The notes beneath the pieces were generated by a model. That model made no database searches, was not told where the DNA came from, and saw only the letters and a list, made by a program, of their open reading frames with translations. This document shows, piece by piece, positions 4,069 to 39,821 of a stretch of 64,000 nucleotides of DNA (its first letter is position 1; each line of letters starts with the position of its first letter). Source of the DNA: a virus (lineage: Duplodnaviria; Heunggongvirae; Uroviricota; Caudoviricetes); IMG/VR virus record IMGVR_UViG_3300033495_000700; one strand, given 5' to 3'. Made by a program: the position numbers and the translations under genes.

Positions 4069-4141
4069 TTGGACCCTCCGGACTCGAACCGGAACCTTAC
4101 AAATTATGAGTTTGCGGCACTAACCATTATGCTAGAGTCCA
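4069..4141 (-). tRNA. tRNA-Met (anticodon CAU; could also be a lysidine-modified Ile2 type)
   Basis: Hand-folded from the reverse complement. 7-bp acceptor stem TGGACTC/GGGTCCA, D-stem GCAT/GTGC, anticodon stem GCAAA/TTTGT with loop CTCATAA, and a T-arm TCCGG-TTCGAGT-CCGGA. 73 nt; no CCA encoded. Confidence 0.75.
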
Positions 4142-4220: not shown

Positions 4221-5132
4221 TTATTCTTGCGGTGCAAAATTGGGTAGTAGAAATTCTTGTACTCTTGGCAACGTAAACAGCATGGGAGGCAGTTGATCCA
4301 CTGGAAACCGTTTCAAAATTGATTCTGGTTCCCAGGCCAAACTTTCACCTTCTTCAAATTTAAATCCTTGTGCAGCATGCCGTTGATGCCCCTGATTCGG
4401 TGCATGTGCATATGATCGGCTTTTGACTTGGATCCGGGCATTACCGCCCATCCAACTAAAATGCCACCCAAATTCATCAAATATTTCTCCTCCTATGGTG
4501 GGAGTGACTACCTCAGCTGGCACATGATAACTACAACGAATACGATGCGGGGTTGTTTTTTGTATTATAGATTTTTTACAAATACTCATGGCCGTACGCC
4601 AAACAAATGGCCAACCTGCTCGCGCATATGGTCGCAAGTCGGCTCTGCCGTACAGATTGATCAACGGCAACTTCACAACTGTATCAGGGTTATTCTTGGC
4701 AATGTTCAGAGCAAATTGAATATGATCAGGATTGATGATCTCATCACAATCACTCATCAAAATCCAGTCATTAAGATCAAATTTGTAAAGTACCTTCTGC
4801 AATGCATTGCGCTGAATTCGATCTCGTGCCACAGCTTGTATAGACACGATATCTGCACGGTCTTCAGGAAATTGTGCCTCAAAGTCATGTTGTTCCAACT
4901 GCAAATTAACATCGTCGGCCATGTGTACTTCAACCACTGTGATTTTTTCTGCAGGAAGTCCCAATTCAGCAATCAAATTTTTCAATTGATACTGCCTGGG
5001 TATAGCAGTGTGTGTCATATTGGATTCTGAAATCACAAAATGATCCACGTGATCTTTCAACAGATTAATTCTGAATTCTAACAATTCACGTTCGTTGAAG
5101 TAGGGAAAATAATCAATAAGTTGACCCGCCAT
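4221..5132 (-). CDS. glycosyltransferase family 17-like (bisecting GlcNAc-transferase fold)
   Basis: YFPYFNERELLEFRINLLKDHVDHFVISESNMT, MSDCDEIINPD and FSWMGG resemble the MGAT3/GT17 signature segments. Start at ATG 5132 with an AAGAAAGG RBS. Confidence 0.6.
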   Translation of the reverse strand: MAGQLIDYFPYFNERELLEFRINLLKDHVDHFVISESNMTHTAIPRQYQLKNLIAELGLPAEKITVVEVHMADDVNLQLEQHDFEAQFPEDRADIVSIQAVARDRIQRNALQKVLYKFDLNDWILMSDCDEIINPDHIQFALNIAKNNPDTVVKLPLINLYGRADLRPYARAGWPFVWRTAMSICKKSIIQKTTPHRIRCSYHVPAEVVTPTIGGEIFDEFGWHFSWMGGNARIQVKSRSYAHAPNQGHQRHAAQGFKFEEGESLAWEPESILKRFPVDQLPPMLFTLPRVQEFLLPNFAPQE

Positions 5133-5134
5133 AG

Positions 5135-5431
5135 TTACCTTTCTTGTTGTTTCAAAATCCACATGGTCAAATCTGGACCACCAATCAACACACATTGTTT
5201 TGTGTATTTAAGATACCCAGTGCCCGATCGATATCCAGACTGGGACATAAGTGGAATCACCCTTACCTGTCTTGGTGTGATCTTGATCACTTTACCTACC
5301 ATCATTGAGTTATGATGCGTGAATGCAACTGCATCTCCTTCCACAACTTCGCGACCCAGCAGATCGCAGTGCAATTCAATTTCAACTTGCATTCCAGATC
5401 TCCTGGTACCCTTCTTCCAACGACGGTTCAT
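5135..5431 (-). CDS. hypothetical protein
   Basis: 98-aa ORF; start uncertain. Confidence 0.35.
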   Translation of the reverse strand: MNRRWKKGTRRSGMQVEIELHCDLLGREVVEGDAVAFTHHNSMMVGKVIKITPRQVRVIPLMSQSGYRSGTGYLKYTKQCVLIGGPDLTMWILKQQER

Positions 5432-5846
5432 GCCACCCGTTGATCATGCCACGCATCACATGGTCGGGGATGCTCTTGCCAACTCGACTGGCCAACCGGC
5501 GAGCTAACTCAGTTGAATCAGGAGTACGAAACACCACGGCAATATGCTCGTAATTGGGCAGCATGTTGAACTTTTTCTTGCGGCTTTTGATTGTGGTACT
5601 GGTTTGATCCCAGATTATGGTATGCCCGTGCTCACGTGCAAATACCACCTGTTCTATCATTAAATCCACAGCCGTGGGCATGTAATCCTCGAACACTTGA
5701 TTGTAAGTTTTGCCTTGTGCTCTGGCATAGTGTTCTACAAACGCATCTGTAGACACTACAGTCAGCCCCAGTGCCCAATCTTGGTTCTTGATCCATGTGC
5801 TTTTGCCCGAACCTGGCACTCCCACTAAAACATACACTCTCGGCAT
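5382..5846 (-). CDS. polynucleotide 5'-kinase (T4 Pnk kinase-domain-like P-loop kinase)
   Basis: [22 protein letters not shown] compares well with T4 Pnk [21 protein letters not shown]. Start moved to ATG 5846. Confidence 0.7.
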   Translation of the reverse strand: [154 protein letters not shown]

Positions 5847-5955
5847 TATTTTTCTACCACTTGATATTGGCTCATTGGGTAGCGTTTTTGCAACCATTCC
5901 ACAAGTCCTGGCTCCCACGGCAATTCGATTGATCTGTTACGGTTGGTAATGTATT

Positions 5956-6174
5956 TCATTGTTCATGTCCTAGTGTTGCTGGACTGTGATCCAGCCAATC
6001 CCGATTGTCATCTGAATAAAAGAATGCATCAGGATCAGTTATTGTAACACACAAATCACTATGGGTCAAATCATAGTCTGTAAACACTGTGCCGTCGTAC
6101 ACACGAAAATAATAGTTACCATCAAAAGAACGTATCAAATGTCCTTCCACACCGTTGGCTAGCTTAGAGGTCAT
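5956..6174 (-). CDS. hypothetical protein
   Basis: 72-aa ORF. Confidence 0.4.
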   Translation of the reverse strand: MTSKLANGVEGHLIRSFDGNYYFRVYDGTVFTDYDLTHSDLCVTITDPDAFFYSDDNRDWLDHSPATLGHEQ

Positions 6175-6365
6175 TCTTCAACTCCAAAATGTTTTTTAAT
6201 TTCCTGCACAGTGAGATTGGCAGGATACTTGGTTTCGAGATCTATCATGATTTTGCAACATTCATTTATCAACAGTTTGGCAAATCTTTCCAGTTGCTGA
6301 CTGTTCACAGTGGGATAGTGGCTGCCTCCTGCTTGTAGGGCTAGTTCTTTAATTTGTTTGTTCAT
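6171..6365 (-). CDS. HFGVE-family small protein paralog (64 aa)
   Basis: Begins MNKQIKELALQ... and ends ...IKKHFGVEE. Confidence 0.65.
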   Translation of the reverse strand: MNKQIKELALQAGGSHYPTVNSQQLERFAKLLINECCKIMIDLETKYPANLTVQEIKKHFGVEE

Positions 6366-13145: not shown

Positions 13146-13160
13146 TGATTATACTCCTAC

Positions 13161-13192
13161 ATTTATTTATGCATAAATGTAGGAGTATTTAG
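13161..13192. repeat. perfect 13-bp inverted repeat (hairpin) between genes
   Basis: ctcctacatttat ttatgc ataaatgtaggag. Confidence 0.6.
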
Positions 13193-13398
13193 AAGTCTCG
13201 ACTGCCCAATTCCACAGTGATAACTTCTTGTTTTTGTGCGTTCAGCAACTGCGTCTGCAGTTCTGTCATGGCCAACAACAGTTTGGTTATGTCAGCATGC
13301 AAGTGTTTGGCGTCACGAATTGGCATGATGAAGTCACGCTGTCCACGTGCTTCATGTGCCTTTACTGAATCAACAAATCGGTTAATATGTATGCTCAT
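13189..13398 (-). CDS. hypothetical protein
   Basis: 69-aa ORF. Confidence 0.4.
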   Translation of the reverse strand: MSIHINRFVDSVKAHEARGQRDFIMPIRDAKHLHADITKLLLAMTELQTQLLNAQKQEVITVELGSRDF

Positions 13399-14217: not shown

Positions 14218-15211
14218 CTAGTGTTCCTTTATATGTTTGGTTGAGCCAACGAGCATATTGCTCTGCTGACTCAGATATCTTGTTGAGTTCGTACTTGCCG
14301 CAGAACTTCATAAATCTCACACCAACTTGACCAATGTCTTTGTGGCTGATCTGTTCACGTATTGCACCGTCTACTTTGGCTTTGATATCGTCTGGCTGTG
14401 CAGTCAAATCAACCAGCACACGATTGCGTTCGTAGTCATCTTTCACACGATGCTCAACACCTTCGTGGTCGGACCAACGTTGCAGCATGAGATTGTTCCA
14501 GGAATATCCTTTGTTGTTTCGATCTTCAAATGCTTCAGTCAAGCCAACTTTGTTTTTGCTACCTTTGGTTCGCACACCAGGATATGCACTAAAGACATTA
14601 TCACTAGTATCACCACGCATACATTTCTCAAACAGCAGCCATTCGGGATCAGGAATAGTCTTGTCTGTCTTGGTCTTTTTATCTTGCACACGACGACCCT
14701 TGGCATCAAATATGCCTGTTATGGTGTGAAGCTCGTCGGTAATGCCATTGTACTGGCTCACATTGGGTGCTAGCAATTGCACAAAATCTGTATCTGATGA
14801 AATCACATAGTGCTCGTCCTGAGGATGCAAGGCTATCCAGCGAGCAATCACGTCGTCTGCCTCAGCCTCAGCATGTCGAATAACGCTACAATTAGTACCA
14901 TCGGCCAGGTATTTGGTGAGGCTATCGTAGGTCTCCCAAAACAATTTATCTTCTTCTTGTTCTGTTTCCGACAGTGCAGCACGAGCCACGGCACGATTCT
15001 TCTTGTAGGGCGCATAAAAGTCTTTGCGCCATGAGCGACCTTCTAGTGCGAACACCACGTGGTCTGCTTGAAATTGTTTGTGTACTTTGTTCACACTGCT
15101 CATCACAATGTGTAAAGCATATCCTATTTTTTCCCATGCATCAGCAGCACGGAAAACAGAGTGACGAGCACGGAAAAAAGTATTAGCTGTATCAATCAAT
15201 AGATATCGCAT
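14201..15211 (-). CDS. rnh: RNase H / 5'-3' flap exonuclease (T4 rnh-like)
   Basis: EADDVIARWIA and the C-terminal RNRVLVDLTAQPDDIKAKV...FMKFCGKYELNKISE resemble T4 RNase H (EADDHIAVLVK; ENLVLIDFDYIPDNIASN...FVKAGLSKLTNSI). Confidence 0.7.
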   Translation of the reverse strand: MRYLLIDTANTFFRARHSVFRAADAWEKIGYALHIVMSSVNKVHKQFQADHVVFALEGRSWRKDFYAPYKKNRAVARAALSETEQEEDKLFWETYDSLTKYLADGTNCSVIRHAEAEADDVIARWIALHPQDEHYVISSDTDFVQLLAPNVSQYNGITDELHTITGIFDAKGRRVQDKKTKTDKTIPDPEWLLFEKCMRGDTSDNVFSAYPGVRTKGSKNKVGLTEAFEDRNNKGYSWNNLMLQRWSDHEGVEHRVKDDYERNRVLVDLTAQPDDIKAKVDGAIREQISHKDIGQVGVRFMKFCGKYELNKISESAEQYARWLNQTYKGTLDEHHS

Positions 15212-15316
15212 AGGGATCCAATATATTGTTTTCTATACAGTATTGTAACACAGACCAGGATTAAAAGCAATCTGGATTTTTACCAAAATGTCAAGATCTG
15301 TGTGACGCTGACAGTT

Positions 15317-15757
15317 TCACGATACTTCAGTGCGACCGTCACCGATGTCGGTGCTGCGAACCCACATGCCACTCTTGGCCATGGCTTCTTCTTGTTCCCA
15401 AGTTTCCATCACCACATGTCTACACACATTCTGGAACCACCGATCCACAATTTCAGCATCGGTGTCATCCTTCTTGATCATGTATCCGGCCTTGACCAGT
15501 CGTGCTACAAAAATCTCATTCCAGTCCAGTTCAAATGCACCTTGATGCAAGTTGTCTAGATCCACATCCATGCTGAGAATGTTCACATAAGGCAATTTGT
15601 TCTCAGTGGCCTGTTGTTTAGCTGTTTTGGGTTGTTCTTTGGGAGGTTGAACCGGAGTCTCTGGGCTTCGACGGGCTCGTGGCCTGGGTGCGGGCTCGGG
15701 CAGCTTGGGTTCTACAACAGGTTGGGGTTTCTTTCGAAACATATCAAAAAATGCCAT
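15317..15757 (-). CDS. hypothetical protein (Pro/Lys-rich N-terminal segment)
   Basis: 146-aa ORF. Confidence 0.4.
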   Translation of the reverse strand: MAFFDMFRKKPQPVVEPKLPEPAPRPRARRSPETPVQPPKEQPKTAKQQATENKLPYVNILSMDVDLDNLHQGAFELDWNEIFVARLVKAGYMIKKDDTDAEIVDRWFQNVCRHVVMETWEQEEAMAKSGMWVRSTDIGDGRTEVS

Positions 15758-15758
15758 G

Positions 15759-16226
15759 TTATTCCTCTTTTACTTCTATCCAGGTATAATCGCCCAGCCA
15801 CTGGACTTGAGCAATATATTGGTAATTTTTGGGAGCACTGCTGCTCCAGTCATTGGGTCCTGTTTTGGCCAGAATAGTTTTTTGTTTGTGGGTATCAAAT
15901 ACTAACCAATAGGTTTGACCATGATAAGTTTGAAATTGATATTCAGCAGAATGCACTGCATCTGTTATTTCTAGTCTACGTTTGATTTCTTGTGCTTGTG
16001 ATTCTAACACTCGAACCAAATCTGTGATGCGATTGTATTCTTGTTGAGCATGCATCCTGGCAACATTGATCATGATGTCCTTTTGTTTTTCAACAGGCAC
16101 AAGATCAAATTTAGGACTCAGCGTGGATGTGGCGTACGGCGTTAAATTTCTGTTGAGGAAATGTATTAGTGAACCAGTTGATTCACTGTCAAAACTGCTC
16201 ACACCGTTGGCTGAATTCTTTGTCAT
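15759..16226 (-). CDS. hypothetical protein
   Basis: 155-aa ORF. Confidence 0.4.
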   Translation of the reverse strand: MTKNSANGVSSFDSESTGSLIHFLNRNLTPYATSTLSPKFDLVPVEKQKDIMINVARMHAQQEYNRITDLVRVLESQAQEIKRRLEITDAVHSAEYQFQTYHGQTYWLVFDTHKQKTILAKTGPNDWSSSAPKNYQYIAQVQWLGDYTWIEVKEE

Positions 16227-16233
16227 TTTGCTA

Positions 16234-16476
16234 TTATCGTTTCAATTGCCACAACAAATAGTCAAATTTGCTTATGTAGTATACGTCAAGTACTGGGTCG
16301 CCCGGACCCATGATAAGTCTTGATCCTTTGTAACACCAAGTAAGCCATAGCCGAGTGCCAGATAAGTAACAAGTTCTTGGCCACACACAAAAATTCAAAC
16401 GCCAATTTCTTGCTTGATTTAGACCCCATTCTTGATATCTATACCGTTGCACGGTCACATCATCCAAAGGCATCAC
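16234..16476 (-). CDS. hypothetical protein
   Basis: 80-aa ORF. Confidence 0.35.
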   Translation of the reverse strand: MMPLDDVTVQRYRYQEWGLNQARNWRLNFCVWPRTCYLSGTRLWLTWCYKGSRLIMGPGDPVLDVYYISKFDYLLWQLKR

Positions 16477-17333
16477 GTGCCCCAGAGATTCTTGAAAAGC
16501 GGTACTTGAAGACGATCACTGTAACGTAGGCCTGCATTCATGGCCATCACAGCCACTGCTTTGTTGTTCAATGAGTAAACACTTTCTACACCGCCCACTG
16601 GCATCAAGTACACATGTCCTTTGAATCCTGCTTGACGATACACTGCAATTGCACGTTCGGCATCTGCAAAGTCTTGCTCAGTGGCAATAACAAATTTCAA
16701 GTATGTTGTACCAACAGATTCATACTCATGCACAATCTCTGGCTGGATGGCATCGTCCCAAGATTCGCCCGAGCAAGGAAGTTTAGCACTTACACTGAAC
16801 GTAATTTCTCGCTCTAATTTGTGATCTTGATTTTGCCACATACCCAAATATGTTCTAAACTCTGAACTCAATTTTTGAGTACCGTTGGTCTCAAATGTGA
16901 TTTCTTTCAACCCTGCCATGTTGGGATGATTCAACAAGTCAGGATAAGCACGTTGCCAACCCAACAATGGTTCTCCACCTGTGATTACCAGATGCTCATC
17001 CTGCCATTCGCCGTGCGGAATAATTTCCATAATACGATTCACAATTGCTTCGCTGGTCAACATGGGACTCAATTCCTTAAAGTCTGGATGCCAACTAGCA
17101 TAACTGTCGCATCCTGTGCTAACCAGCGGAAGTTCATTGTACTCTTTAAATGGATGCATGGCATGCATAACTGCAATTTCTTCTGCTTCCTTGCTGAGTT
17201 CACCACGTGGCATACCAAAGCCCTTGCAAGAAAAATTGCAGCCAAAAGTTCTCAAGAAGACGCTAGGTACCCCCATATATCTACCTTCCCCCTGTATAGA
17301 GTAGAAAAGTTCTGCTATCTTAATCTTTGACAT
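16473..17333 (-). CDS. queE: QueE-like radical-SAM 7-carboxy-7-deazaguanine synthase homolog (atypical Cys motif)
   Basis: AELFYSIQGEGRYMGVPSVFLRTFGCNFSC matches the QueE N-terminal signature (F.SIQGEG..G.P..F.R..GCN..C). The third Cys is not adjacent. Confidence 0.5.
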   Translation of the reverse strand: MSKIKIAELFYSIQGEGRYMGVPSVFLRTFGCNFSCKGFGMPRGELSKEAEEIAVMHAMHPFKEYNELPLVSTGCDSYASWHPDFKELSPMLTSEAIVNRIMEIIPHGEWQDEHLVITGGEPLLGWQRAYPDLLNHPNMAGLKEITFETNGTQKLSSEFRTYLGMWQNQDHKLEREITFSVSAKLPCSGESWDDAIQPEIVHEYESVGTTYLKFVIATEQDFADAERAIAVYRQAGFKGHVYLMPVGGVESVYSLNNKAVAVMAMNAGLRYSDRLQVPLFKNLWGT

Positions 17334-30582: not shown

Positions 30583-31569
30583 TCATTCAAACGAAAATAA
30601 GCTAGTAAATGTATTTGCTGTGTTTGTACTTGATTGCAAGTCCCAGGACAGCACACCCAATAGATTGTCAATCTTTTGGTCCACCACAGTGGCTTCCATG
30701 TTAGCATCATCAAACGGCAGTTCTTTAAACCAGGCTGGCAAATGATGCTCGTCTGTGGGATACCCAATACTGGTCCACCCTAGAGCATTGCTCTTGAGTT
30801 TGCATACAATGGTTTTCATACCATCCACAATCTGCATGGAGTAATTGTCTGAATTCATGCGTCGCAATGTGTTCCAGTTCAATGCAGCTCGAACATGTCC
30901 GGGCATGTTGGACTTGCCATTTTTTTCTTCTAAATTGCCATACTTGGTCAAGTTGTTCACACGCTTGGGTGAGCCTTTTTCCCAGCCCGGGCGTTCGGTA
31001 AATTTGTATTTGAATTCTCTGATACATTCCACAATTTCTTCTCTCTGTGTTCCTGTTAGTACCTTATTTAGAAGATCGCTAAGGAACTCTTGAATAACCA
31101 CCGGAGTATCACTGCGTTTTAGATCCAGACCCATGGCCTTTACCTTGCCCGGTCGGCCATTTACATCCACACGCTTGTTTTCTTTGTCAATGTACAGCAC
31201 AGCATAACGCTTCTTGGTAATAAACAAACCGGTACGTGCTACAATTTCTCGACCACCACGAATCACAGATCCCATGTCTCGTGGACAATGAAATGCCTGT
31301 TCCATGAATCCAGGAAAAGAATCATTCACTTGTTCGGCTATGGAGTTGTACAATGCAATACAAGTTTCTGCAGACCACTCCATTCTACCATCTTCAACTT
31401 CAGCTTGAACCATGGGCCACGCTGAAAAGTAACACGAATCTGTGTTATGTACTAAAATATCATTTGCAAAGAAGAACGGATCTTGTTTGTCAATGCTTAT
31501 ATCATACACATAGTCGTCAATTTCGCCAAGGCATTCGACGCTCTTTACTGTTGTTCTTTCAATATCCAC
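30583..31569 (-). CDS. 43: DNA polymerase (family B) C-terminal fragment, preceded by the C-terminal split-intein half (IntC)
   Basis: GTG start right after a TAA. Begins VDIERTTVKSVECLGEIDDYVYDISIDKQDPFFFANDILVHN|TDSCYF. The IntC resembles Npu DnaE IntC (VYDIGVERDHNFALKNGFIASN). The extein then supplies the TDS of motif C and the thumb domain. Confidence 0.8.
   Translation of the reverse strand: MDIERTTVKSVECLGEIDDYVYDISIDKQDPFFFANDILVHNTDSCYFSAWPMVQAEVEDGRMEWSAETCIALYNSIAEQVNDSFPGFMEQAFHCPRDMGSVIRGGREIVARTGLFITKKRYAVLYIDKENKRVDVNGRPGKVKAMGLDLKRSDTPVVIQEFLSDLLNKVLTGTQREEIVECIREFKYKFTERPGWEKGSPKRVNNLTKYGNLEEKNGKSNMPGHVRAALNWNTLRRMNSDNYSMQIVDGMKTIVCKLKSNALGWTSIGYPTDEHHLPAWFKELPFDDANMEATVVDQKIDNLLGVLSWDLQSSTNTANTFTSLFSFE
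31444..31569 (-). other. split intein C-terminal half (IntC, 42 aa) ending HN, with +1 Thr
   Basis: ...YVYDISIDKQDPFFFANDILVHN followed by TDS. Confidence 0.75.
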
Positions 31570-31767
31570 TGGATTACTTTCTTAATTATTTCATGCTTAT
31601 TTGCTTTGAACTCGGATTCCAATATTACCAACGTCTTGAATCCAAGGTCCTGAACAGTCTGTAATTTTAGCATATCTCGATGCCTGATTTCAGCCGCAGT
31701 TTTACCTCGCATGATTGCAGAATCCGCATATACTGCTGGGTTAGCATGCCAGTAATCACCGTTAAAT

Positions 31768-32295
31768 TCATGTAGATAGGCAAATTATCAAATCATTTGG
31801 CAGGATATCAACAGGCTTAACTTCAATCAGGAATCCGTCACGATCTACCATTACGCTGTGATCTTCTGTCACTGTAACCGACTTATCATTATGCAATGTT
31901 ATTTTGTACAGTTTCTTTTTAGTTTTATGTCGCATAACATAAGAAATCCTACTCAAAACTGGCGCATCGTCGAACGCATTAAAGCCGACTACTTTAGCAA
32001 ACGACTGAACGCCGTATTCTTTATCACCATTACGTTCGTGTTGCTGGCACTGATTATATAACTCTGCAATTGTGATCTGTTCCGAATCGGTACGAATCAG
32101 TGTATCTCCGGTTACACTGTCGCCATATATGATACTTTTACCACTGTGATCATACTCGCCTGTGATGCATTCATTCACATATGCATCCATGTGCTTGGCA
32201 ATACTGCGACCCACCAAGGTTGTTGACTGTCCAATACGCTTGTCAAAGAATCTGCAGCCGGGATTCAAGATGGCACCATACACATTTATGTTCAG
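31768..32295 (-). CDS. 43: DNA polymerase (family B) middle fragment (motif B to YGD) fused to the N-terminal split-intein half (IntN)
   Basis: (L)NINVYGAILNPGCRFFDKRIGQSTT...IIYGD then SVTGDTLIRTD...TVTEDHSVMVDRDGFLIEVKPVDILPNDLIICLST*. The extein aligns to T4 gp43 INSLYGALGNVWFRYYD...LYGD. The intein carries blocks A and B (TxxH). Confidence 0.8.
   Translation of the reverse strand: MNINVYGAILNPGCRFFDKRIGQSTTLVGRSIAKHMDAYVNECITGEYDHSGKSIIYGDSVTGDTLIRTDSEQITIAELYNQCQQHERNGDKEYGVQSFAKVVGFNAFDDAPVLSRISYVMRHKTKKKLYKITLHNDKSVTVTEDHSVMVDRDGFLIEVKPVDILPNDLIICLST
31771..32118 (-). other. split intein N-terminal half (IntN, ~116 aa, Ser1)
   Basis: It begins immediately after YGD and is followed by a stop and then a 198-nt spacer containing several in-frame stops. 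Confidence 0.7.
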
Positions 32296-33742
32296 CTAAC
32301 TTCGCTAAAGTTAGTTCGTTTAGATTTACTAAACCGCCTTATATTTCTATAAGGATCAGACTATATCACCATCCAATTATTGGATGCCCCCCGTTTCGAT
32401 TCGCTTGAATCTACGTCTTTCGACTAGTCGTTGAACCTTCATATTGCTATGCTTGGCTGCTGATTGTCTTCAACTTAATGGTCAGAGTTTCCAGCAATTA
32501 GAGGAGTTATTCAACTATTGTTACCAATAGAGGTCGCAGTATCTTTACGAATTTAAATTAATTTTCTTAACCAATTGGCGCTTATCCCAAAACACTATCT
32601 GTTTTTTGACTTCTTCTTGATTTTTGTGAAATATTTTATTGTCGGAAATAACAAGATCATTTCTTGCACAAAACTCCTTTAACTCAGCAGCAGTGCCTTT
32701 TTCTAGCAATGTATTGAGATCGTTAATATTCATCTATTCCTCTCTTGTTGAAAATTTGTCGGTTGTGCTCGTTTTGTACTTCTTTAGTCTCGAAAATAAT
32801 CTCCGGGGACCAATTGTCTGATGAAATTCTTACGATTTGAATTCCTTCTTCTAAGCATATCTGATGCTTACTGATATCATTTTTTATCGATGATTCTTTT
32901 CGATGCCAATATTCTCCATCAACTTCTACTAATAATAGCATGTCTGACAAGTAAAAGTCAAATTTTTTCTCCCTAACGGGATATTGAGTGACGTATCTAA
33001 TATTATTTTTGTTTAAAAATTGTTCAAATTGTATTTCTAAACTTGTAGTTTTTTTATTTGGGAATACTAATTTGTTTTCTTTTAAATATTCTTTTCTCCG
33101 AATACTCAAGTTGAGTCGATATTTTTCAAATTCGATCAAGTCATCTTTACGTCTTCTCCACGCCTGTTGTTGATTTAATGTTTTTTGTTGTTTTACATCT
33201 GGCAGTAAGACAAGTTTTTTACCTTTTTTTGCAATAGAAAGATTTCTTTTAGTTTCGTCAGTGTGTGTTACTCCAGGCTTCCCTATTCTGGATTCGTGAT
33301 AACACTTTTGGCATTGCATGCCGTTTAAAAAATTCCCCAAGTTCACTGTATAAGTCCCATGGTGTAAACATTTTACTTGTATTTGATCAGTTCTCGTTAA
33401 CACTTTATTTGGAAGAGCAACAATAGAATAATTGTTAGTTTCTGCTTGATATACTTCTTCTAAAGATATAATATTGTTAGTATTAATATGATTCCTACAT
33501 CTAACGTTATCTACATTGTCTCGAAATCTTTTGGTAATCGTTACTGTTTTGCTACAAATTTCGCACACAGGTATTGGATCACTCCTTAGGTATAGTTGTA
33601 TGGCTCCTGATAAATCAGAAATATTTTCTTTACCTCCGTAGTACTCTATTAATCGTTTAAACTGTCGGGGATACTTTTTCTTAAAATCATTAACAAAATT
33701 CATAATATTTCCTTTATATTATTTATCCTGTTACTTTTCAGA
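32296..33742 (-). mobile_element. 1.45-kb insertion in polB motif B; putative HEG-containing group I intron (a precise split gene is the alternative)
   Basis: Exon 1 ends ...SISQKN and exon 2 begins (L)NINVYG, together recreating the KxxxNSxYG region. The 3' part contains GACTA ... 70 nt ... TAGTC (a P7-like pair), a ccttataGAAAtataagg GNRA hairpin, two further hairpins and a terminal ...ttaG before the exon. A TAG stop sits just inside. Confidence 0.5.
32723..33703 (-). CDS. homing endonuclease with Vsr/DUF559-type (EVDG...H) nuclease domain
   Basis: C-terminal FDFYLSDMLLLVEVDGEYWHRKES...DISKHQICLEEGIQIVRI. The N-terminus is Cys-rich. It starts 40 nt after the stop of polB exon 1 with an AAAGGAAA RBS. 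Confidence 0.65.
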   Translation of the reverse strand: MNFVNDFKKKYPRQFKRLIEYYGGKENISDLSGAIQLYLRSDPIPVCEICSKTVTITKRFRDNVDNVRCRNHINTNNIISLEEVYQAETNNYSIVALPNKVLTRTDQIQVKCLHHGTYTVNLGNFLNGMQCQKCYHESRIGKPGVTHTDETKRNLSIAKKGKKLVLLPDVKQQKTLNQQQAWRRRKDDLIEFEKYRLNLSIRRKEYLKENKLVFPNKKTTSLEIQFEQFLNKNNIRYVTQYPVREKKFDFYLSDMLLLVEVDGEYWHRKESSIKNDISKHQICLEEGIQIVRISSDNWSPEIIFETKEVQNEHNRQIFNKRGIDEY

Positions 33743-35362
33743 TTAATTTTTTTGACTAATGGATAGTCTGTCAGGTATTGTGATACCGCTTGACAAGTCG
33801 TTCCATAGGTTTTTAGTTTTCTGCATGTCTAGACGTTCACTATACCAGCGTTTGAGCAAGCCTGGGATTACACCTTCTTTTTCGTAGGTGAATATGGTAC
33901 CATTGGCACTGAGGATCCATGGTCGATTAGAGTCAAACAGCATCTTCCAAATTTCAGCAGCTGAGTGAACAGTTTCCTCGCCATCCTGCCAGTCTATGGT
34001 GATCTCTGTGCCACGTTGCTGTTCCATCACAGCAGTGTATTCTAAGCTGGCAAACAATCCTTCCCATGCAGCAGCAAAGCTATCTCCGCCAGCTATTTTG
34101 TCTTGGATTAGCCGGTCAGTCAGTGTGGGTCTGAGTTGGCCGACAATGGTTTCTGGACCCATGTTAAGGGCCCGAATAGCACTGGGATAGAGCGAGTTGA
34201 TGTCGATGCTACCAATCCAGTCGTGGATCCCTTTTTTGGGATAAGCAACATAGGCACCTGCGGCTTGCGTGTCATCATCTGTGAGTCTTTCTTTACGGTT
34301 AGGAACTACCATACCACGTTCGTGAGCTTCAATAATAATTGCTTGCTCAGTCACAGCCACTGCACCCATTGTGGTCGGCAACAGCACGGTATTTTCATGT
34401 GCCAGGGTATTGGCCAAGCTCAAGAATTTAAGTTTCTTGTCCAGCTTGCCGATCAACATTGTGTCCTGGCGATTGTAATCAATAAAGATCTTGAAGTTCT
34501 GGTTGTACAACTGATCCAGTGTGCCTTCAAATGCAGTCTTACGACCAATTTCTTCGTATTCACCAATGGCGTCTAAGGCATAGCTGTGACGTTCTTCATA
34601 AGTGTATTTGCGATACAGTTGCATATAGTCCATATGCACTCGACCTACCAAGTCATAGGTTTGATTCTCTGCACCAAATCGTTCAAACATACGTGGCTTG
34701 GGAAACTGATTCCATAAGCACATACGTCTAGTGTCATCTTTGCTGAGAACTCTGGTGATTCGATTCACAGTGTAGGGAATGTCGTAACCTTCCGAGTTCC
34801 ATCCAGTGAGAATGTCTGCATCTTCAATAAGATCCAGAAATGTGTTCAACATGTCTGCTTCTTTTTCAAACATAAAGCAGTTGTCAAACTCTGCTGCAAT
34901 CTCTTTGGCAGTTTCCATGCTCATATGACGTGGAGGTACAGCCAGCGTCACAATTTGATCCAGCCAATCCATGTACACAGAGATAGCAGTGATTGGGTTG
35001 AACGGATCTGTCACAGGTGAGAAACCACGTTTGGGATCAAAGTCTACTTCAATGTCATAGAATGCTGTGTGCAGTTGAGGGCCGTCTTTGCCTTTGTAGT
35101 TTTCCTCTAAACAACGAAAGATAGGGTTAATATCACTTTCGTAGATTTTCTTGCTGGAGTGCATACGCACTTCCTTGCGAAACTCTTTGTTGTTGCGTGA
35201 GGAAAATCTACTCACTGGCGTGTCGTAGATGCTACGAAACTTGCCTTTGGGGTCGTCGTAGTAAAGAACGTAGTTGGCTGGATACTCTTGGTATACCCGT
35301 CGGCCATCTCGGCGTTCAACCACGTGAATTCGATCATGTGCTCGATCATATAAACAGTCCAC
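33743..35362 (-). CDS. 43: DNA polymerase (family B, T4 gp43-like) N-terminal fragment: 3'-5' exonuclease plus palm motif A
   Basis: FYDIEVD (Exo I), GWNSEGYDIPY (Exo II), YNRQDT (Exo III), SIDINSLYPSAI (motif A). Ends ...SISQKN*. Confidence 0.9.
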   Translation of the reverse strand: MDCLYDRAHDRIHVVERRDGRRVYQEYPANYVLYYDDPKGKFRSIYDTPVSRFSSRNNKEFRKEVRMHSSKKIYESDINPIFRCLEENYKGKDGPQLHTAFYDIEVDFDPKRGFSPVTDPFNPITAISVYMDWLDQIVTLAVPPRHMSMETAKEIAAEFDNCFMFEKEADMLNTFLDLIEDADILTGWNSEGYDIPYTVNRITRVLSKDDTRRMCLWNQFPKPRMFERFGAENQTYDLVGRVHMDYMQLYRKYTYEERHSYALDAIGEYEEIGRKTAFEGTLDQLYNQNFKIFIDYNRQDTMLIGKLDKKLKFLSLANTLAHENTVLLPTTMGAVAVTEQAIIIEAHERGMVVPNRKERLTDDDTQAAGAYVAYPKKGIHDWIGSIDINSLYPSAIRALNMGPETIVGQLRPTLTDRLIQDKIAGGDSFAAAWEGLFASLEYTAVMEQQRGTEITIDWQDGEETVHSAAEIWKMLFDSNRPWILSANGTIFTYEKEGVIPGLLKRWYSERLDMQKTKNLWNDLSSGITIPDRLSISQKN

Positions 35363-36035: not shown

Positions 36036-39000
36036 TCATTGGCCGTTTAGCATTTGTGCTATCAATGCTTGGCGTTTCACACGGCTTTCGCTCATGGTAT
36101 TGGATCCAGTGTTGGGTTTTTTTGGTTGCTCGGCTTGTGGCACATTTTTGTAAACACGTTTGACAGGATCGTATACAGTTTTAAGTGGGCCCATGCCGGC
36201 TAGCTTTTTGACTCTGGACACCATGTCTTGATAGTCGGCGCCGTAGTCGGCTTCTTTTTCTCGAGGCTTGCCTTCCGCCATGTCTCGATTGATACTCTCA
36301 CCACCACCACCATCCCCGCTGCCACCAGGCTCGCCACTACCATAATAACCATAGCCTGGAAAGAAATATCTACCCAAGGATCTTGAAGTTTTTTTCTTTT
36401 TTCTTCTTGAACCCTCCGCCACACCTTTTTTATTCAACGCATCAATCGCGGCTTTTTTATGTTCGGGCGATGCTGTACTCATTGCAATATCTTTAATCAT
36501 CTTGGCAGTGCCAACCATGTCATCCGTGGGTTCAAAGTTTCCTAACCTCTTGTCATATTCTTTACGCTTGGCTGCAACTTGTTTGGCGTGAGCACTGGCC
36601 TCATTTATATCATTGAAATAATGACCAATGGCTGCATCTTCTGGGTCCACTGCAATCAGTCTATATGGAGCAATATTCCAACCACGGCCGTCTTTGTCTT
36701 CTATACGCACTCTGCGATCGTCGGGCTGACCACGCATGATAAACACTTCGCCGGAACTGTCCTGGCTGTCACGGACATAATCACCAGACTGAAGATTCAT
36801 GTATTCGTCGCGTGTACTTTCATCATCGTAACCGTCATTGCCTTCCGCCACACCTTGCTCTTTAACTTTCTTTCCTGTGTGTCTAGGAACATCACGCACT
36901 AGACTGTGTTTGCCATCATGGTGCCATCCTGGAAAATATTTGCCCGCTGACTGGAAAAAACGCTGATATATTGCTTCTTGTCTTTCTCCTGCACCCTGCA
37001 TGATAATTTCATCAATCTCTGTGTTGTATTCAGTGATGAATTTACGAACAGCATTGATTACAGTAGAATAGATTAAGAATTGGTTTTTATTTTTAGCAGT
37101 TAAATCAGTATTAATTTCATCGCCAAAACTATAGTCATCTTGTTCTTCTCTTACACCAAATGATACATTCACTGCGTTCCAGTTTTGTTTTTTACCAAAA
37201 GCCGGAGCACCTTTTACAGTGAAGTTTATTAAGTATGTGTCTTTACCAGACTTAAACTTCATAACTTTGTATGTAACTTGTTTACGGTCATTAGTGTTTA
37301 CAAAATCTTTTGGTTCTTTAACTTTGAGACTTGTGTTTGCTAATTCTTCTAAAGAGCCTTCCGCCACACCTTGCTCTCTAACCGGACCACCCCAACGAGC
37401 ATACAATCCATGCTGGGGTCCACCATCTTCAGGATGACGAGCACTGTAAATAGAAATGCCTTTTTGTATGGATTGCAATTCATTTTGATCAGCGTTGGCA
37501 CCCACTGGGAAACTTACATACACAAAGTCTGATTTTTTACCAATCTCTTGACCACCTGCCTTCAATAACAAACCGATTAGTCTTGCGGCGCTGTCGTCAT
37601 AGATTTCACGGCGATTGTTTCTCAGTGCCCATTCATCGCTAAACACAGATGTGAAGCCATTGATTGATACACCTGGCACCTGTGACAGTCTAAGCCATGA
37701 ACTACGAGCCTGTGGAGTTTGAGTTTCATCTGCCACAATGGTCATGCCTAACAATTTCATTGCTACACCGTAGAGATTTTGTCCCAGGCCTGTGCCGCGA
37801 TATTCATTATCAAGTCCAACGTTGGCAACTTGATAGCTGTTTTTGATAGGGAACCACGGTACCGAACGCAATGACAGGAAGCCTGCTTTTCTTAGTCCAT
37901 CATCAGGATGTTTTACATCAAATAGTTCAATGATGTAGTCAGCACCAGTCAAGAAAGAGCCTGCACGCCCAGCTTCACCGGCGGTGTAACCAAAACGCTG
38001 ACTGCCTGGCAGCATCTTGATCTTTGACAAAGTTTCTTTGCCGTAATTCTGACTTTTGGTGCTTAGTCCTTCTTTATCACCCGGGGTTCGTTGTATTTCT
38101 TGTATTTTTTCTTTGGTCTGATCCTGTGCGTCACTTTGTTGTTCACGCTTGTGCAATTCTTTACGTATCAATGCTTTGAATCTTGCTTCATTGCGATGTA
38201 AGACGCCTGGTCGTAACATTATTTTCAAGTGGTCGGTGTCGTAGTTGCTATAATCCGCCCCTCGAGTTGGTAGTTGATCAACAGAGCCTTCTGTCATACC
38301 TTGCTGTCTACGCTGTTTGCGAATAACAGCAATGGCCTGCAATACTGTTTTCTTAGTTAGTTTGCCTTCGCCTGCCATCAAGCGAATATCCTGCATAGTG
38401 ATACCGTCTTCAGTTGGAATCTTGATCTTTGCACCAGCTGACACAACTGGCTTTTTGTTATATTCTTTTTCGTATGCCTGTTGCTGCAACCAAGCATCTC
38501 TAGCAGCCGGACCATATTCGTCATCGTTTCTAGAGCCTTCCGCCACACCTTGCTTGTTCAACGCATCAATTGCGACTTTTTTATGTTCCGGAGAAGCATC
38601 GCTCATTGCAATATCTTTAATTAGTTTTGCAACACCAAACATTTGATCCGCTGGTTCAAAGTTGCCCAACCTCTTATCATATTCTTTACGGTTGGCAGCA
38701 ACTTCTTTGGCATGGGCTGATCGGGGTTCATTACTGCCGCCCGCCCAACCATACGCAGTGCGAAATTTCTTTACTTCTTCTAAATTAAAATAATGACCAA
38801 TGGCTGCATCGTCTGGATCAACCGCGACCAGCCTATATGGTGCAATATTCCAGCCTCGTCCATCTTTATCTTCTATTCTTACTCGACGATCGTCGGGCTG
38901 GCCACGCATGATAAACACTTCGCCGGAACTGTCTTGAGTATCACGGACATAATCGCCTGATTGGAGATTCATATATTCGTCGCGTGTACTTTCAGCATCG

Positions 39001-39821
39001 TACCCGTCATTGCCTTCCACCACACCTTCCCTTACTCCCTTTTCTTTACGCTTTGGTACTGGCTTTCCTGCCAAATCTTTATCGCCGATGTAGACACCAT
39101 TCTTGTCATGACTTGCTGGATTCTTTTCAAACGGCTTACCTTTGCGAGCTTCCCGATCTGCTTCTGCTTTCTTAACAGCATCAGCCCAGTAGCCTTCCGT
39201 TACATCTTGAGCAGCAGCTACAGCACTACGGCTTTCTGCCACACCTTCCTTACCTGAATTAGCGTGTGCCTTGGCAGCTTTTTCACTTGTAAAGATTTTA
39301 CGTGAACCAGCCTGATTAGTTGCAACATATGAGCCGTCTTTGGTTTTCTTTACCTCGCCTCTGTGATTACCACGTGCGTCCCGTGCGCTATCTGTAGTTG
39401 GATCCAAGCCTTCCGCCACACCTTGCTTATACAATGCTAGTCGCTTCTTCTCGTGAGTAATACTTTGTTGGATAGCATCTTGATCAGCATTGGGGCGATC
39501 TAGTTGTGCTTGTAATCTTTCTATAGCGGCTCGGATAGCATCTACATCCTTTTGATCACGCTTGCTCAAGCCCTCCGCTATACCTTGCTGCATATCTCGC
39601 TTGACTGCACGAGCAACATCTTGTGCCAGAGCACTGGGATTGCTATCTCCACCGTAGTTCAACACATCTACGATTGCTGCATGGATTGTACGTTGGTCGG
39701 CTCGGCGTGCCAAGTTGGGATATATCATTTCAAATTCAGCATATACTTGGTTTGCTAAATCTTCTTCATCGTAGCCTTCGACGATTGTGGGTTTGCGATT
39801 GAAAAGGTTGTCAATGATCAT
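36036..39821 (-). CDS. 1261-aa modular protein; candidate polyprotein of head-internal/ejected proteins with repeated QGVAEG linkers and a GNAT-like segment
   Basis: At least 9 copies of (Q/K)G(V/I)AEG. An internal ~170-aa duplication. YRGTGLGQNLYGVAMKLLG is GNAT motif-A-like. Gly-rich C-terminal region. Confidence 0.55.
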   Translation of the reverse strand: MIIDNLFNRKPTIVEGYDEEDLANQVYAEFEMIYPNLARRADQRTIHAAIVDVLNYGGDSNPSALAQDVARAVKRDMQQGIAEGLSKRDQKDVDAIRAAIERLQAQLDRPNADQDAIQQSITHEKKRLALYKQGVAEGLDPTTDSARDARGNHRGEVKKTKDGSYVATNQAGSRKIFTSEKAAKAHANSGKEGVAESRSAVAAAQDVTEGYWADAVKKAEADREARKGKPFEKNPASHDKNGVYIGDKDLAGKPVPKRKEKGVREGVVEGNDGYDAESTRDEYMNLQSGDYVRDTQDSSGEVFIMRGQPDDRRVRIEDKDGRGWNIAPYRLVAVDPDDAAIGHYFNLEEVKKFRTAYGWAGGSNEPRSAHAKEVAANRKEYDKRLGNFEPADQMFGVAKLIKDIAMSDASPEHKKVAIDALNKQGVAEGSRNDDEYGPAARDAWLQQQAYEKEYNKKPVVSAGAKIKIPTEDGITMQDIRLMAGEGKLTKKTVLQAIAVIRKQRRQQGMTEGSVDQLPTRGADYSNYDTDHLKIMLRPGVLHRNEARFKALIRKELHKREQQSDAQDQTKEKIQEIQRTPGDKEGLSTKSQNYGKETLSKIKMLPGSQRFGYTAGEAGRAGSFLTGADYIIELFDVKHPDDGLRKAGFLSLRSVPWFPIKNSYQVANVGLDNEYRGTGLGQNLYGVAMKLLGMTIVADETQTPQARSSWLRLSQVPGVSINGFTSVFSDEWALRNNRREIYDDSAARLIGLLLKAGGQEIGKKSDFVYVSFPVGANADQNELQSIQKGISIYSARHPEDGGPQHGLYARWGGPVREQGVAEGSLEELANTSLKVKEPKDFVNTNDRKQVTYKVMKFKSGKDTYLINFTVKGAPAFGKKQNWNAVNVSFGVREEQDDYSFGDEINTDLTAKNKNQFLIYSTVINAVRKFITEYNTEIDEIIMQGAGERQEAIYQRFFQSAGKYFPGWHHDGKHSLVRDVPRHTGKKVKEQGVAEGNDGYDDESTRDEYMNLQSGDYVRDSQDSSGEVFIMRGQPDDRRVRIEDKDGRGWNIAPYRLIAVDPEDAAIGHYFNDINEASAHAKQVAAKRKEYDKRLGNFEPTDDMVGTAKMIKDIAMSTASPEHKKAAIDALNKKGVAEGSRRKKKKTSRSLGRYFFPGYGYYGSGEPGGSGDGGGGESINRDMAEGKPREKEADYGADYQDMVSRVKKLAGMGPLKTVYDPVKRVYKNVPQAEQPKKPNTGSNTMSESRVKRQALIAQMLNGQ
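36415..36935 (-). repeat. intragenic duplication, copy 2 (~85-90% nucleotide identity to 38530..39050)
   Basis: Encodes GNDGYDDESTRDEYMNLQSGDYVRDSQDSSGEVFIMRGQPDDRRVRIEDKDGRGWNIAPYRLIAVDPEDAAIGHYFN...SAHAKQVAAKRKEYDKRLGNFEP...ASPEHKKAAIDALNKKGVAEGS. Confidence 0.7.
38530..39050 (-). repeat. intragenic duplication, copy 1
   Basis: Encodes GNDGYDAESTRDEYMNLQSGDYVRDTQDSSGEVFIMRGQPDDRRVRIEDKDGRGWNIAPYRLVAVDPDDAAIGHYFN...AHAKEVAANRKEYDKRLGNFEP...ASPEHKKVAIDALNKQGVAEGS. Confidence 0.7.

Follow-up and report, generated by a model that had tools for sequence, protein, structure and literature searches.

A split phage DNA polymerase gene with a free-standing EDxHD endonuclease gene and a predicted ORF-less group I intron in motif B

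A polymerase gene in several pieces

The window analysed here is a 64,000-nucleotide stretch of DNA from a PA5oct-like jumbo phage (IMG/VR record IMGVR_UViG_3300033495_000700) in which the DNA polymerase gene polB is encoded on the minus strand, as are all features described below. An earlier note on this DNA had proposed that polB is interrupted inside motif B by one 1.45-kb element, a candidate group I intron carrying a homing endonuclease gene (HEG), with a precise split gene of the 43A/43B type as its alternative. Comparison with related loci indicates that the two alternatives are true together, polB being both a split gene and a gene with an intron: there is a group I intron in motif B, but the element is not one 1.45-kb intron, and polB reads as a patchwork of distinct selfish elements. 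The gene is divided at the tip of the fingers domain, which yields two predicted products, PolB-A of 539 aa and PolB-B of 403 aa after maturation.

The polB-A cistron (33743..35362, an ORF call of 539 aa plus stop) encodes the N-terminal and exonuclease domains together with palm motif A (DINSLYPS) and the first helix of the fingers (RWYSERLDMQK), and ends in a C-terminal tail reading ...SSGITIPDRLSISQKN before the stop codon. It matches the Pfam families DNA_pol_B_exo1 (1.7e-20) and DNA_pol_B, is 49% identical to the PolB of PA5oct, and has counterparts of 529-551 aa in 12 related loci and also in locus L015. Downstream, polB-B opens with an exon 1 of 187 nt (32547..32733), which comprises 62 codons beginning with its own ATG and the first base of a Leu codon; a GAGG lies 5 nt 5' of the ATG, and the exon overlaps the HEG stop by 11 nt. 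Its product is the 'head' at the tip of the fingers plus the first half of motif B (...FWDKRQLVKKINLNS), so that the true motif B lysine segment (...VKKINLNS) is coded by this small ORF. Among the 12 loci selected through the HEG, the ORF is called at 62 aa in 11 and at 75 aa in L012, and its C-terminus is WDKRQLVKKINLN(S/A) in all 12; it matches residues 562-629 of PA5oct PolB (BLASTP, E 2e-7), and stand-alone PolB-B proteins (402-405 aa) begin at the same point. On these matches the 62-aa 'intron ORF' is PolB coding sequence, the predicted exon 1 of a separate cistron.

The N-extein part of polB-B exon 2 (32119..32282) reads (L)YGAILNPGCRFFDKRIGQSTTL...IIYGD and spans the C-terminal half of motif B to motif C. 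The predicted mature polB-B product matches the protein P0022, likewise 403 aa, at 88% identity and 100% coverage. Since polB-A has its own stop and polB-B its own ATG with GAGG upstream, both cistrons have starts and stops of their own, and the split-gene alternative of the earlier note applies as well. By analogy with 43A and 43B of Aeromonas phage 25, we infer that PolB-A and PolB-B would assemble non-covalently via the tail of PolB-A (about 25 aa) and the head of PolB-B (about 45 aa), extra segments confined to split polymerases.

At motif C, polB is interrupted a second time, and independently of the first, by a split intein. Its N-terminal half (31768..32118; Pfam Intein_splicing) has 116 aa, starts with Ser1, contains block B TEDH and then meets a stop codon; it is 37% identical to the PA5oct/MIJ3 N-intein (E 4e-27). 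The C-terminal half (42 aa, 31444..31569, ending ...ILVHN) begins an ORF (30583..31569; Pfam Intein_splicing and DNA_pol_B) that continues through the C-extein (31443..30586, TDSCYFSAWP... to the PolB end) to the stop. Between the halves, a 55-aa ORF (31545..31712) appears to be the truncated remnant of a second EDxHD-type endonuclease gene: it matches the C-terminal part of Pfam MTES_1575 (E 4e-4) and the C-terminus of a full-length 321-aa ORF at the same position in locus L005 (E 2e-10), itself a distant relative of the HEG upstream of the intron. Excision is predicted to leave IIYGD-TDSCYFSAWP, the same sequence as in intein-less homologues, and the split intein would thereby ligate the C-terminal piece of the polymerase. 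The split PolB intein of Pseudomonas phages MIJ3 and PA5oct has been described (PMC6892783); it is homologous to that of the window, where the insertion point lies two codons from the PA5oct site. Like the 'fractured genes' of Dassa et al. (2009, PMC2677866), the split intein has a Vsr-like endonuclease gene between its halves, reduced in the window to a remnant.

The intron in motif B

By Rfam match, RNAalifold and pair counts, the element in motif B is an IA2-like group I intron of 264 nt with no ORF (32283..32546), whose 5' splice site follows U32547 and whose terminal G is 32283. The intron suspected in the earlier note is borne out by a minus-strand match to Rfam RF00028 (Intron_gpI) at 32337..32556, which covers the full-length model at 82.1 bits (E 2e-19; gathering score 50 bits). 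Unguided RNAalifold on 11 homologues recovered P1-P9.2, with compensatory changes in 36 of the 73 predicted pairs. In the curated structure, which is the RNAalifold result plus P7 and P10 (75 pairs), 97.9% of cells are paired in the 11 homologues, against 31-44% with slid partners, and 36 of 75 pairs, one of them in P1, show a compensatory change, against 3-8 in the slid controls; none of 500 shuffles reached as high a count.

The helices comprise P1 (32546-32550 with the IGS, 32534-32538), P2 (32515-32530), P3 (32501-32506 with 32387-32392), P4 (32491-32496 with 32458-32463), P6/P6a (32435-32457), P7 (32425-32429 with 32359-32363), P7.1 (32415-32424), P7.2 (32398-32411), P8 (32370-32386), P9 (32337-32354), P9.1 (32318-32334), P9.2 (32294-32316) and P10 (32539-32542 with 32278-32281). 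Several had been seen from the letters alone: the GACTA...TAGTC pair of the earlier note is P7, its GAAA-loop hairpin is P9, and its other two hairpins correspond to P9.1 and P9.2. Compared with the Rfam model the intron has 29 extra nt, which fold into two hairpins, P7.1 and P7.2; these are subgroup IA markers and have compensatory changes in 3 of 3 pairs of one and 4 of 5 of the other.

The exact splice sites come from P1 and P10. In P1, UCGU/A (the slash marking the splice site) pairs with UGCGA of the IGS; there are only 4 exon pairs, the U·G splice-site pair is present in all 11 sequences, and the pair next to it changes from U-A to G-C in L012, alongside a Ser-to-Ala change in the exon. 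The 3' splice site is defined by the short P10 together with the terminal G; P10, weak in several homologues, changes from G-C to A-U in three sequences. Splicing is predicted to run AAT TCG U/...AAAUG/UG UAU and to join ...AAATTCGT to TGTATGGTGCC, reuniting the motif B Leu codon that the intron splits as U/UG (KINLNS-L-YG). The resulting KINLNS-L-YGAILN is identical in uninterrupted relatives, and contiguous PolBs read ...EEYWDKRQLVKKINLNSLYGAILN...IIYGDTDSCYFSAWP. In every locus the reading frame runs on through the junction and the exons are strongly constrained by purifying selection, and the ribozyme probably self-splices after transcription, restoring motif B.

This places the boundaries elsewhere than the earlier note did. 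It had given the intron 1447 nt, with a 5' site 1.2 kb too far upstream and a 3' site 13 nt short; G32296, which it saw directly before the exon, is not the terminal G, and the 3' 430 nt that it took as non-coding include the 187 nt of polB exon 1. It missed P1 because the IGS pairs with the end of the 62-aa exon and not with the end of the 539-aa ORF.

The endonuclease gene and its relation to the intron

The gap between polB-A and polB-B (the A/B gap) holds a HEG of 326 aa (32723..33703) that belongs to the EDxHD / I-Bth0305I (Vsr-like) family. It begins 39 nt after the polB-A stop and has a ribosome-binding site of its own, and 176 nt separate its end from the intron's 5' splice site; it lies entirely upstream of that site (32547/32546), with the 187-nt polB exon in between. 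There is no second ribozyme at E<=1 in 32200-33850, and no ribozyme flanks the HEG. Because of this, and because only 39 nt separate it from polB-A upstream and it overlaps polB-B downstream, the HEG is best described, as far as sequence can tell, as free-standing and outside the intron. The Vsr/DUF559-like ORF that the earlier note had recognized and linked to the intron is therefore kept, but not its place within the intron.

The catalytic domain spans approximately residues 220-300, with a phmmer match to PDB 3r3p over residues 220-298 (E 2.7e-4). The HEG also matches PHROG 559 (E 5e-23), and its Pfam matches, to MTES_1575 (33.9 bits, cut-off 38.2), Vsr and DUF559, all lie below the curated cut-offs. 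Residues E223, D249, E260, D262, H267 and D276 are invariant in 21 homologues, and D249 and H267 align with D196 and H213, both mutated to Ala in 3r3p. The N-terminal half is Cys/His-rich, in conserved clusters, with one NUMOD3 match at 16 bits, below the cut-off of 20.4. A T4-type late promoter upstream of the HEG, considered from a (C/G)ATAAATA motif, was dropped, the motif being not clearly enriched: in the window CATAAATA was found 3 times against 3.1 expected, and TATAAATA, marginally enriched, 5 times against 2.1. Sigma-70 and terminator scans gave scores at background.

How closely are the HEG and the intron linked? The intron occupies the same site in all 18 loci examined that carry this HEG, and this HEG was found in none of 82 intron-less loci, in a sample biased by its construction, one locus set having been picked via the HEG and the other via uninterrupted polB-B; the control is one-sided, consisting of uninterrupted polB-B only, as the ranking favours contiguous matches. 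The HEG proteins of the 18 intron-bearing loci have diverged to as little as 45% identity. In relatives the A/B gap can contain other nuclease genes, some of them in antisense orientation, and the distinct nuclease genes seen there number at least four. In L144 and L146 the intron sits at the same site next to an unrelated HNH-type HEG, and L151 has a related intron beside an antisense EDxHD-like ORF; the intron is therefore not tied to this one HEG. L015 has a gap nuclease and no intron. An intron-pattern scan returned mostly related IA2 introns in other genes, and a near-identity DNA search of deposited phages found nothing past the conserved ribozyme core.

Beside the HEG lies a degenerate, out-of-frame copy of intron-less motif B DNA (33718..33762), recognized as a peptide-level match. 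Translated in the +1 frame with respect to polB-A, it gives PLVKKINLKSNRINN; it covers the polB-A stop and the spacer that leads to the HEG. Among 9,000-17,000 six-frame windows it ranks as the second-best match to QLVKKINLNSLYGAI in 8 of the 11 loci. The likeness is clear only at the peptide level; in an ungapped nucleotide 51-mer test the copy rose above the shuffle null only in L009. It may descend either from an intron-less site or from a site whose intron was deleted. It persists in loci whose HEG proteins are only about 45% identical, and it could be a working element, for instance an operator for HEG autorepression, or the footprint of an invasion that carried the HEG from a motif B target into the gap. 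Autorepression through an operator has been shown for I-TevI.

We consider it likely that the locus combines a split polB, a free-standing EDxHD HEG and an ORF-less IA2 intron, and we infer splicing of the intron, assembly of the two PolB pieces and homing of the HEG with the intron. For the last of these, collaborative (trans) homing is the most likely mode: in co-infecting relatives the HEG would cut motif B DNA that lacks the intron, at the intron's insertion site or close to it, the intron would disrupt the HEG site in its own genome and so give immunity, and double-strand-break repair would co-convert HEG, exon 1 and intron together. The window has what a collaborative pair consists of, an ORF-less 264-nt intron with a free-standing HEG nearby in the same genome.

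The same anatomy could also house a HEG that carries out 'intronless homing' near its own insertion point, the intron being a co-converted hitchhiker or an older resident. Phage HEGs of the free-standing type mostly cleave no more than a few hundred bp from where they are inserted (PMC2988022), the gap with its four different nuclease genes in relatives resembles a general landing pad, and both the gap nuclease of L015, which has no intron, and the introns beside other HEGs fit this reading. We nevertheless hold it to be unlikely, as the association of HEG and intron is perfect in the 18 loci despite the divergence of the HEG proteins, and the motif B copy at the HEG 5' flank in all of them fits motif B as a present or past target. 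The corresponding HEG of Aeromonas phage 25, compared below, reportedly (in work by Petrov from 2010) targets the intron-less 43B site. The flanks of the I-TevII ORF likewise resemble its target (PMC3984707).

It is very improbable that the ribozyme is a decaying, non-splicing relic, with motif B divided between two polypeptides or the gene dead. P1 and P10 are short, and the 55-aa remnant to which the intein-site HEG has been reduced indicates that selfish elements do decay at this locus. However, the catalytic-core helices are all intact, with pairing kept through 94 double-change cells across homologues; there is no variation in the U·G pair, the terminal G or P7; the exons remain selected and in frame; and a 62-aa peptide ending inside motif B could not give a working polymerase active site.

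Least probable of all is a single mobile intron of about 1.45 kb (32296..33742/5) with the HEG in a peripheral loop, joining ...SISQKN to LNINVYGAILN, as the earlier note had it. Its observations at the ends are accurate, in that the ORF 33743..35362 ends ...LSISQKN before its stop and TAG directly precedes CTG AAC ATA AAT GTG TAT GGT; the join is in frame and yields a K-x3-(I)(N)-x-YG string, a stop lies directly past the junction on each side, and the HEG is upstream of the ribozyme core in a family in which P1-loop HEGs are known (PMC2677866). The comparative data nonetheless already refute it, for 9 of the 11 distinct relatives have a stop in frame ahead of the QK codons, the variation in the 'LNIN' residues is incompatible with the conserved motif B Asn and Ser, contiguous homologues read KINLNSLYGAILN and not QKNLNINVYG, the invariant ...WDKRQLVKKINLNS ORF is left unexplained, P1 and P10 covariation favours the other splice sites, and a G·U-anchored search over 1450 nt for a P1 at its 5' site gave weak candidates of 2-4 exon pairs, none with comparative support. 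The QKN/LNINVYG 'junction' appears instead to stem from the motif B copy upstream of the HEG.

Known counterparts and the evolution of the locus

Taking the split gene, free-standing HEG and ORF-less intron as the preferred reading, the arrangement itself is already known from Aeromonas phage 25. According to the reviews that cite Petrov, Ratnayaka & Karam 2010 (PMC2988022, PMC2993671), gene 43 of that phage consists of 43A, a free-standing seg-like HEG, and 43B with the HEG-less IA2 intron 25.g43B; they report that 43A and 43B purify together, with polymerase activity, and that the intron is expected to rely on the free-standing HEG. In the record compared here (NC_008208) the order is that of the window: a polB N-fragment, a HEG, and a C-fragment that carries, within its first ~190 nt, a small IA2 intron without an ORF. 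The split likewise falls in the fingers tip, with the motif B lysine ~55 residues past the B-fragment Met; the HEG stop overlaps the B start; and a Leu codon is split U/UG after an exon end NCGU, with an IGS of GCG(A/C). The two loci differ in the HEG, which is GIY-YIG (seg-like) in phage 25 and EDxHD/Vsr-like in the window, and in the intron site, which in the window lies 12 nt (4 codons) upstream of that of phage 25. The introns are ~70% identical over the core and measure 264 nt in the window against 347 nt. The window, moreover, comes from a PA5oct-like jumbo phage and not from the Straboviridae, and it adds the motif C split intein and, next to the HEG, the vestigial copy of motif B.

Collaborative or trans homing has been described for the cyanophage S-PM2 psbA intron and the free-standing F-CphI (Zeng 2009; Bonocora & Shub 2009; reviewed in PMC3984707), and a further case is T4 mobE with the nrdB intron (PMC2790892; reviewed in PMC3984707). 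These systems differ from the window in their HEG families and in position: the window HEG lies inside a split of the same gene, whereas theirs lie beside an intact gene. The prototype of the EDxHD homing endonuclease family is I-Bth0305I (PMC3239194; PDB 3r3p). With it and with the Hef-type phage endonucleases, the window HEG shares a Vsr-like catalytic domain in which E, D, H and D are conserved; like I-Bth0305I, it appears bipartite, with a putative N-terminal DNA-binding region and a C-terminal nuclease, and is associated with a phage group I intron in a DNA-metabolism gene. I-Bth0305I, by contrast, is coded inside its recA intron and has two NUMOD2/HTH repeats, whereas the window HEG is free-standing, with Cys/His motifs and a weak NUMOD3 match.

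Closely related IA2 introns with the same 4-nt guide occupy three NCGU/ sites within ~31 nt of motif B DNA, at -19 nt in L151, 0 in the window and +12 nt in phage 25, a spread that suggests reverse-splicing hops. At least four different nuclease genes may have taken turns in the A/B gap. Metagenomic relatives vary accordingly in composition, with the gap HEG swapped or absent and the intron present, absent or shifted, and the intein may be missing, contiguous, or split, in the last case with either a full HEG or a remnant. It is possible, though doubtful, that this locus family is a natural series that captures the origin of mobile introns, with its relic, shifted introns and swapped HEGs; if so, the 'collaborative homing' route to composite mobile introns would become directly testable.

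For annotation, the locus is a trap: gene callers break the polymerase up into four or five unrelated ORFs, one of which is a 'hypothetical' protein of 62 aa, and the HEG is easily mis-filed as intron-encoded. The predicted pieces nevertheless rebuild the mature enzyme exactly, as PolB-A and PolB-B. The short split intein and the EDxHD nuclease may serve as tools, and the range of states among relatives offers a test bed for models of how mobile introns and split inteins arise and decay. The locus is a second, independent arrangement of the phage 25 type, found in a phage lineage far removed from that of phage 25 and with a HEG from another endonuclease family, and it therefore supports the view that a free-standing HEG and a HEG-less intron form a recurrent, stable partnership at conserved polymerase motifs.

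Layout of the split polymerase gene

The N-terminal part of polB is an ORF of 539 aa (33743..35362, minus strand) ending in ...LSISQKN and a stop. The Vsr-like ORF that the earlier note had described, a 326-aa homing endonuclease gene (HEG; 32723..33703, minus strand), is present and begins 39 nt past that stop, and near 32295 the polB reading resumes as LNINVYGAILN. What lies between? The 326-aa ORF has 20 metagenomic homologues (39-71% identity), and all 12 loci fetched from among them share one gene order: the polB N-part, the HEG, an overlapping small ORF, ~250-270 nt of non-coding DNA and the remainder of polB. The small ORF is 62 aa long in 11 of these loci and 75 aa in L012, and its C-terminus is invariant across them, ...FWDKRQLVKKINLN(S/A) before the stop. 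These residues make up the first, N-terminal half of motif B in PolB, a motif that reads YWDKAQLVRKIGLNS-LYGGLLN in phage PA5oct, and the entire 62 aa aligned to PA5oct PolB residues 562-629 (E 2e-7), which marks the small ORF, judged by its sequence, as a polB exon and not an intron ORF.

The HEG stop overlaps the ATG of the second cistron, polB-B, by 11 nt, and GAGG stands 5 nt upstream of this ATG. The 39 nt that separate the HEG start from the polB-A stop, and this overlap at the other end, leave too little space for a ribozyme around the HEG. The HEG is a free-standing gene and polB a split one, and the terminal stop of polB-A and the separate start of polB-B bear out the split-gene alternative of the earlier note. 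Just upstream of polB, a 1261-aa ORF (36036..39821, minus strand) carries two long internal repeats, nearly identical to each other (...EGNDGYD(A/D)ESTRDEYMNLQSGDYVRD(T/S)QDSSGEVFIMRGQPDDRRVRIEDKDGRGWNIAPYRL...) and many GVAEG motifs.

The group I intron and its junctions

An Rfam scan of the entire window at gathering thresholds returned Intron_gpI once (32337..32556, minus strand; 82.1 bits against a cut-off of 50, E 2e-19), plus one tRNA and nothing else, and a permissive Rfam scan of 32200-33850 found no second ribozyme. The tRNA gene lies at 4069..4141 (minus strand, 59 bits). The 5' splice site falls after U32547 (AAU UCG U^AAAG, carets marking junctions) and the 3' site after G32283 (...AUAAAUG^UG UAU GGU), and the intron therefore spans 32283..32546 (minus strand), without an ORF; the split codon, U+UG, encodes Leu, and the spliced product reads KINLNS-L-YGAILN. 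The earlier proposal of an intron with a Vsr-type HEG in polB motif B is thus partly supported: its observation is partly confirmed and both elements exist, but the HEG lies outside the intron, which measures 264 nt and not 1.45 kb.

Given 11 distinct homologues, each extended by 12 nt of exon on either side, unguided RNAalifold recovers P1, P2, P3, P4, P5, P6/6a, P7.1, P7.2, P8, P9, P9.1 and P9.2; the GACTA/TAGTC pair and the GAAA hairpin picked out beforehand are P7 and P9. Once P7 and P10 are added, 97.9% of cells are paired, against 31-44% with partners slid by 1-3 columns, two-sided changes occur in 36 of 75 pairs, against 3-8 in the slid controls, and none of 500 shuffles attains any observed pairing measure. 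P1 pairs UCGU^A with UGCGA and keeps its U·G pair in all sequences; in L012 an exon end of GCGU (Ser to Ala) faces an internal guide (IGS) of GCGC, and at P10 three sequences combine a G-to-A change in exon 2 with a matching C-to-U change. The P7.1 and P7.2 hairpins, marks of subgroup IA, arise from 29 nt inserted between P7 and P3'. Annotated group I introns in Staphylococcus and Bacillus phages share as much as ~80% identity with the core. We consider the group I intron real and well supported.

Splicing, together with excision of an intein (YGD^...VHN^TDS), predicts a PolB-B of 403 aa. The database PolB-B protein P0022 has 403 aa and is 88% identical at 100% query coverage, other stand-alone PolB-B proteins have 402-405 aa and the same starting Met, and many unsplit, contiguous PolBs carry ...EEYWDKRQLVKKINLNSLYGAILN...IIYGDTDSCYFSAWP; both predicted ligation junctions therefore exist naturally uninterrupted.

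The junction QKN^LNINVYG, proposed earlier for a single intron enclosing the HEG, fails. An in-frame stop precedes the QK codons in 9 of 11 distinct relatives (L005 ...STS*KN, L009 RLK*SQK and L013 RLQ*IVKK are examples), LNIN varies (NNR, EYN, PNIN) where motif B needs a conserved Asn and Ser, and no adequate P1 was found for that 5' site. The apparently rebuilt motif B came from a degenerate, out-of-frame copy of motif B DNA in its intron-less form, (Q/P/K)LVKKINL(N/K)S..., which precedes the HEG start by 40-70 nt (33718..33762, minus strand, following the polB-A tail; same position in L002-L013). This copy is the second-best motif B match in 8 of 11 loci, behind motif A only (9,000-17,000 six-frame windows), with nucleotide-level significance in L009 only, and it persists even where the HEG proteins of the loci have diverged to ~45% identity. 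It may be left over from the site that the HEG first targeted, or may serve as a binding site.

The endonuclease, its neighbors and probable homing

The C-terminal domain of the HEG protein matches I-Bth0305I (PDB 3r3p, E 2.7e-4), its D249 and H267 aligning with D196 and H213, the two residues mutated in the crystal construct (D196A and H213A; PMC3239194). E223, D249, E260, D262, H267 and D276 do not vary among 21 homologues. Pfam matches (MTES_1575, Vsr, DUF559, NUMOD3) all fall under curated cut-offs and PHROG 559 matches at E 5e-23; we file the protein as a predicted EDxHD-family homing endonuclease.

The gap between polB-A and polB-B behaves as an insertion hotspot. Related phages carry there, on one strand or the other, no fewer than four distinct nuclease genes: the EDxHD HEG, an antisense EDxHD-like ORF (L151, about 5000..6200), an HNH-type HEG (L144, 1684..2661, and L146; PHROG 655, E 4e-23) and an antisense zinc-ribbon endonuclease (L014, 1..477, and L015, 3779..4471; PHROG 559/681), the last beside an intron-less polB-B. 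In unsplit relatives the fingers tip is short, with ~16-19 residues between two fingers helices, and split forms add an A tail (...SGITIPDRL) and a B head of ~45 aa. PA5oct PolB (L001, 2995..5406) is contiguous across the split with tail and head fused in one chain, unlike the unsplit close relatives of the window, which have neither; it could have preceded the split form, or have arisen from it by re-fusion.

Anatomy, fold, junctions and endonuclease family are established from the sequence; how might these parts work together? Self-splicing by the ribozyme would restore motif B, and PolB-A and PolB-B may associate, by analogy with the 43A and 43B proteins of Aeromonas phage 25 (PMC2988022). 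In co-infecting relatives that lack the intron, the HEG would cut motif B DNA; the intron would shield its own genome, and repair would co-convert HEG, exon 1 and intron together. We infer that HEG and intron engage in collaborative or trans homing, a described mode (PMC3984707). The co-occurrence of the two supports this: the intron sits at the same site in 18 of 18 fetched loci with the HEG, and the HEG is present in none of 82 intron-less loci, in a biased sample (12 HEG loci were picked via the HEG and six via the intron core). So does the relic resembling motif B beside the HEG, which recalls how the I-TevII ORF is flanked by sequence like its target (PMC3984707). The chief competing explanation is ordinary intronless homing, in which the intron rides along as a co-converted passenger, and a caveat on collaborative homing is that the same intron is also found beside other HEGs.

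Phage 25, intron sites and the split intein

The annotation of phage 25 (NC_008208) lists 43A, a homing endonuclease and a 43B 'split by group IA2 intron', which Rfam finds at 64 bits. The sole join restoring KILINSLYGALGNNFF, GGU GCG U^...AUG^UG GGU, gives an intron of 347 nt (L016, 20094..20440, minus strand). As in the window, a Leu codon is split U^UG after NCGU, and the introns are ~70% identical over the core, but the phage 25 site lies 12 nt downstream and its HEG is of the GIY-YIG type. A related intron in L151 (4116..4392, minus strand) has the same IGS and follows ...ACUCGU^, 19 nt upstream of the window's site. Sharing a short guide (GCGA or GCGC), these related IA2 introns thus sit at three NCGU^ sites within ~31 nt of motif B DNA, a pattern compatible with guide-directed relocation.

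At its motif C this polB is further interrupted by a split intein (30583..32118, minus strand), of a kind described in this PolB clade for MIJ3 and PA5oct (PMC6892783); the 'fractured gene' arrangement was described by Dassa et al. (PMC2677866). The N-half (31771..32118, minus strand) has 116 aa and then a stop, and the C-half (31444..31569, minus strand) has 42 aa and is fused with the C-extein; once excised, the intein would leave IIYGD-TDSCYF, the same sequence as in intein-less relatives. The intein is absent from L002, L006, L008 and L010, a contiguous mini-intein in L012, split with a full ~320-aa ORF in L005, L009 and L013, and split with a remnant in the window. That remnant, a 55-aa ORF (31545..31712, minus strand) between the halves, aligns with the last part of the L005 ORF of 321 aa (E 2e-10) and is the C-terminus of a second EDxHD-type endonuclease gene; the intein-site HEG is decayed and the A/B-gap HEG intact. 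Homologous inteins (37% identity, residue 1 to residue 1) occupy two insertion points 6 nt apart, YGD^[S...HN]^TDSCYF in the window (junctions in 32110..32125 and 31440..31450, minus strand), L007 and L011, and YGDTD^[S...HN]^SCYF in PA5oct, L005, L012, L013, L144 and L146; the shift therefore changes the +1 nucleophile from Thr to Ser.

The phage 25 arrangement thus recurs as a variant, an intron and a free-standing EDxHD HEG in the split polB of an uncultured PA5oct-like jumbo phage, a distant phage that also bears a split intein in the same gene. The value of the locus lies mainly in its correct annotation and in natural variants for the formation and decay of mobile introns and split inteins.
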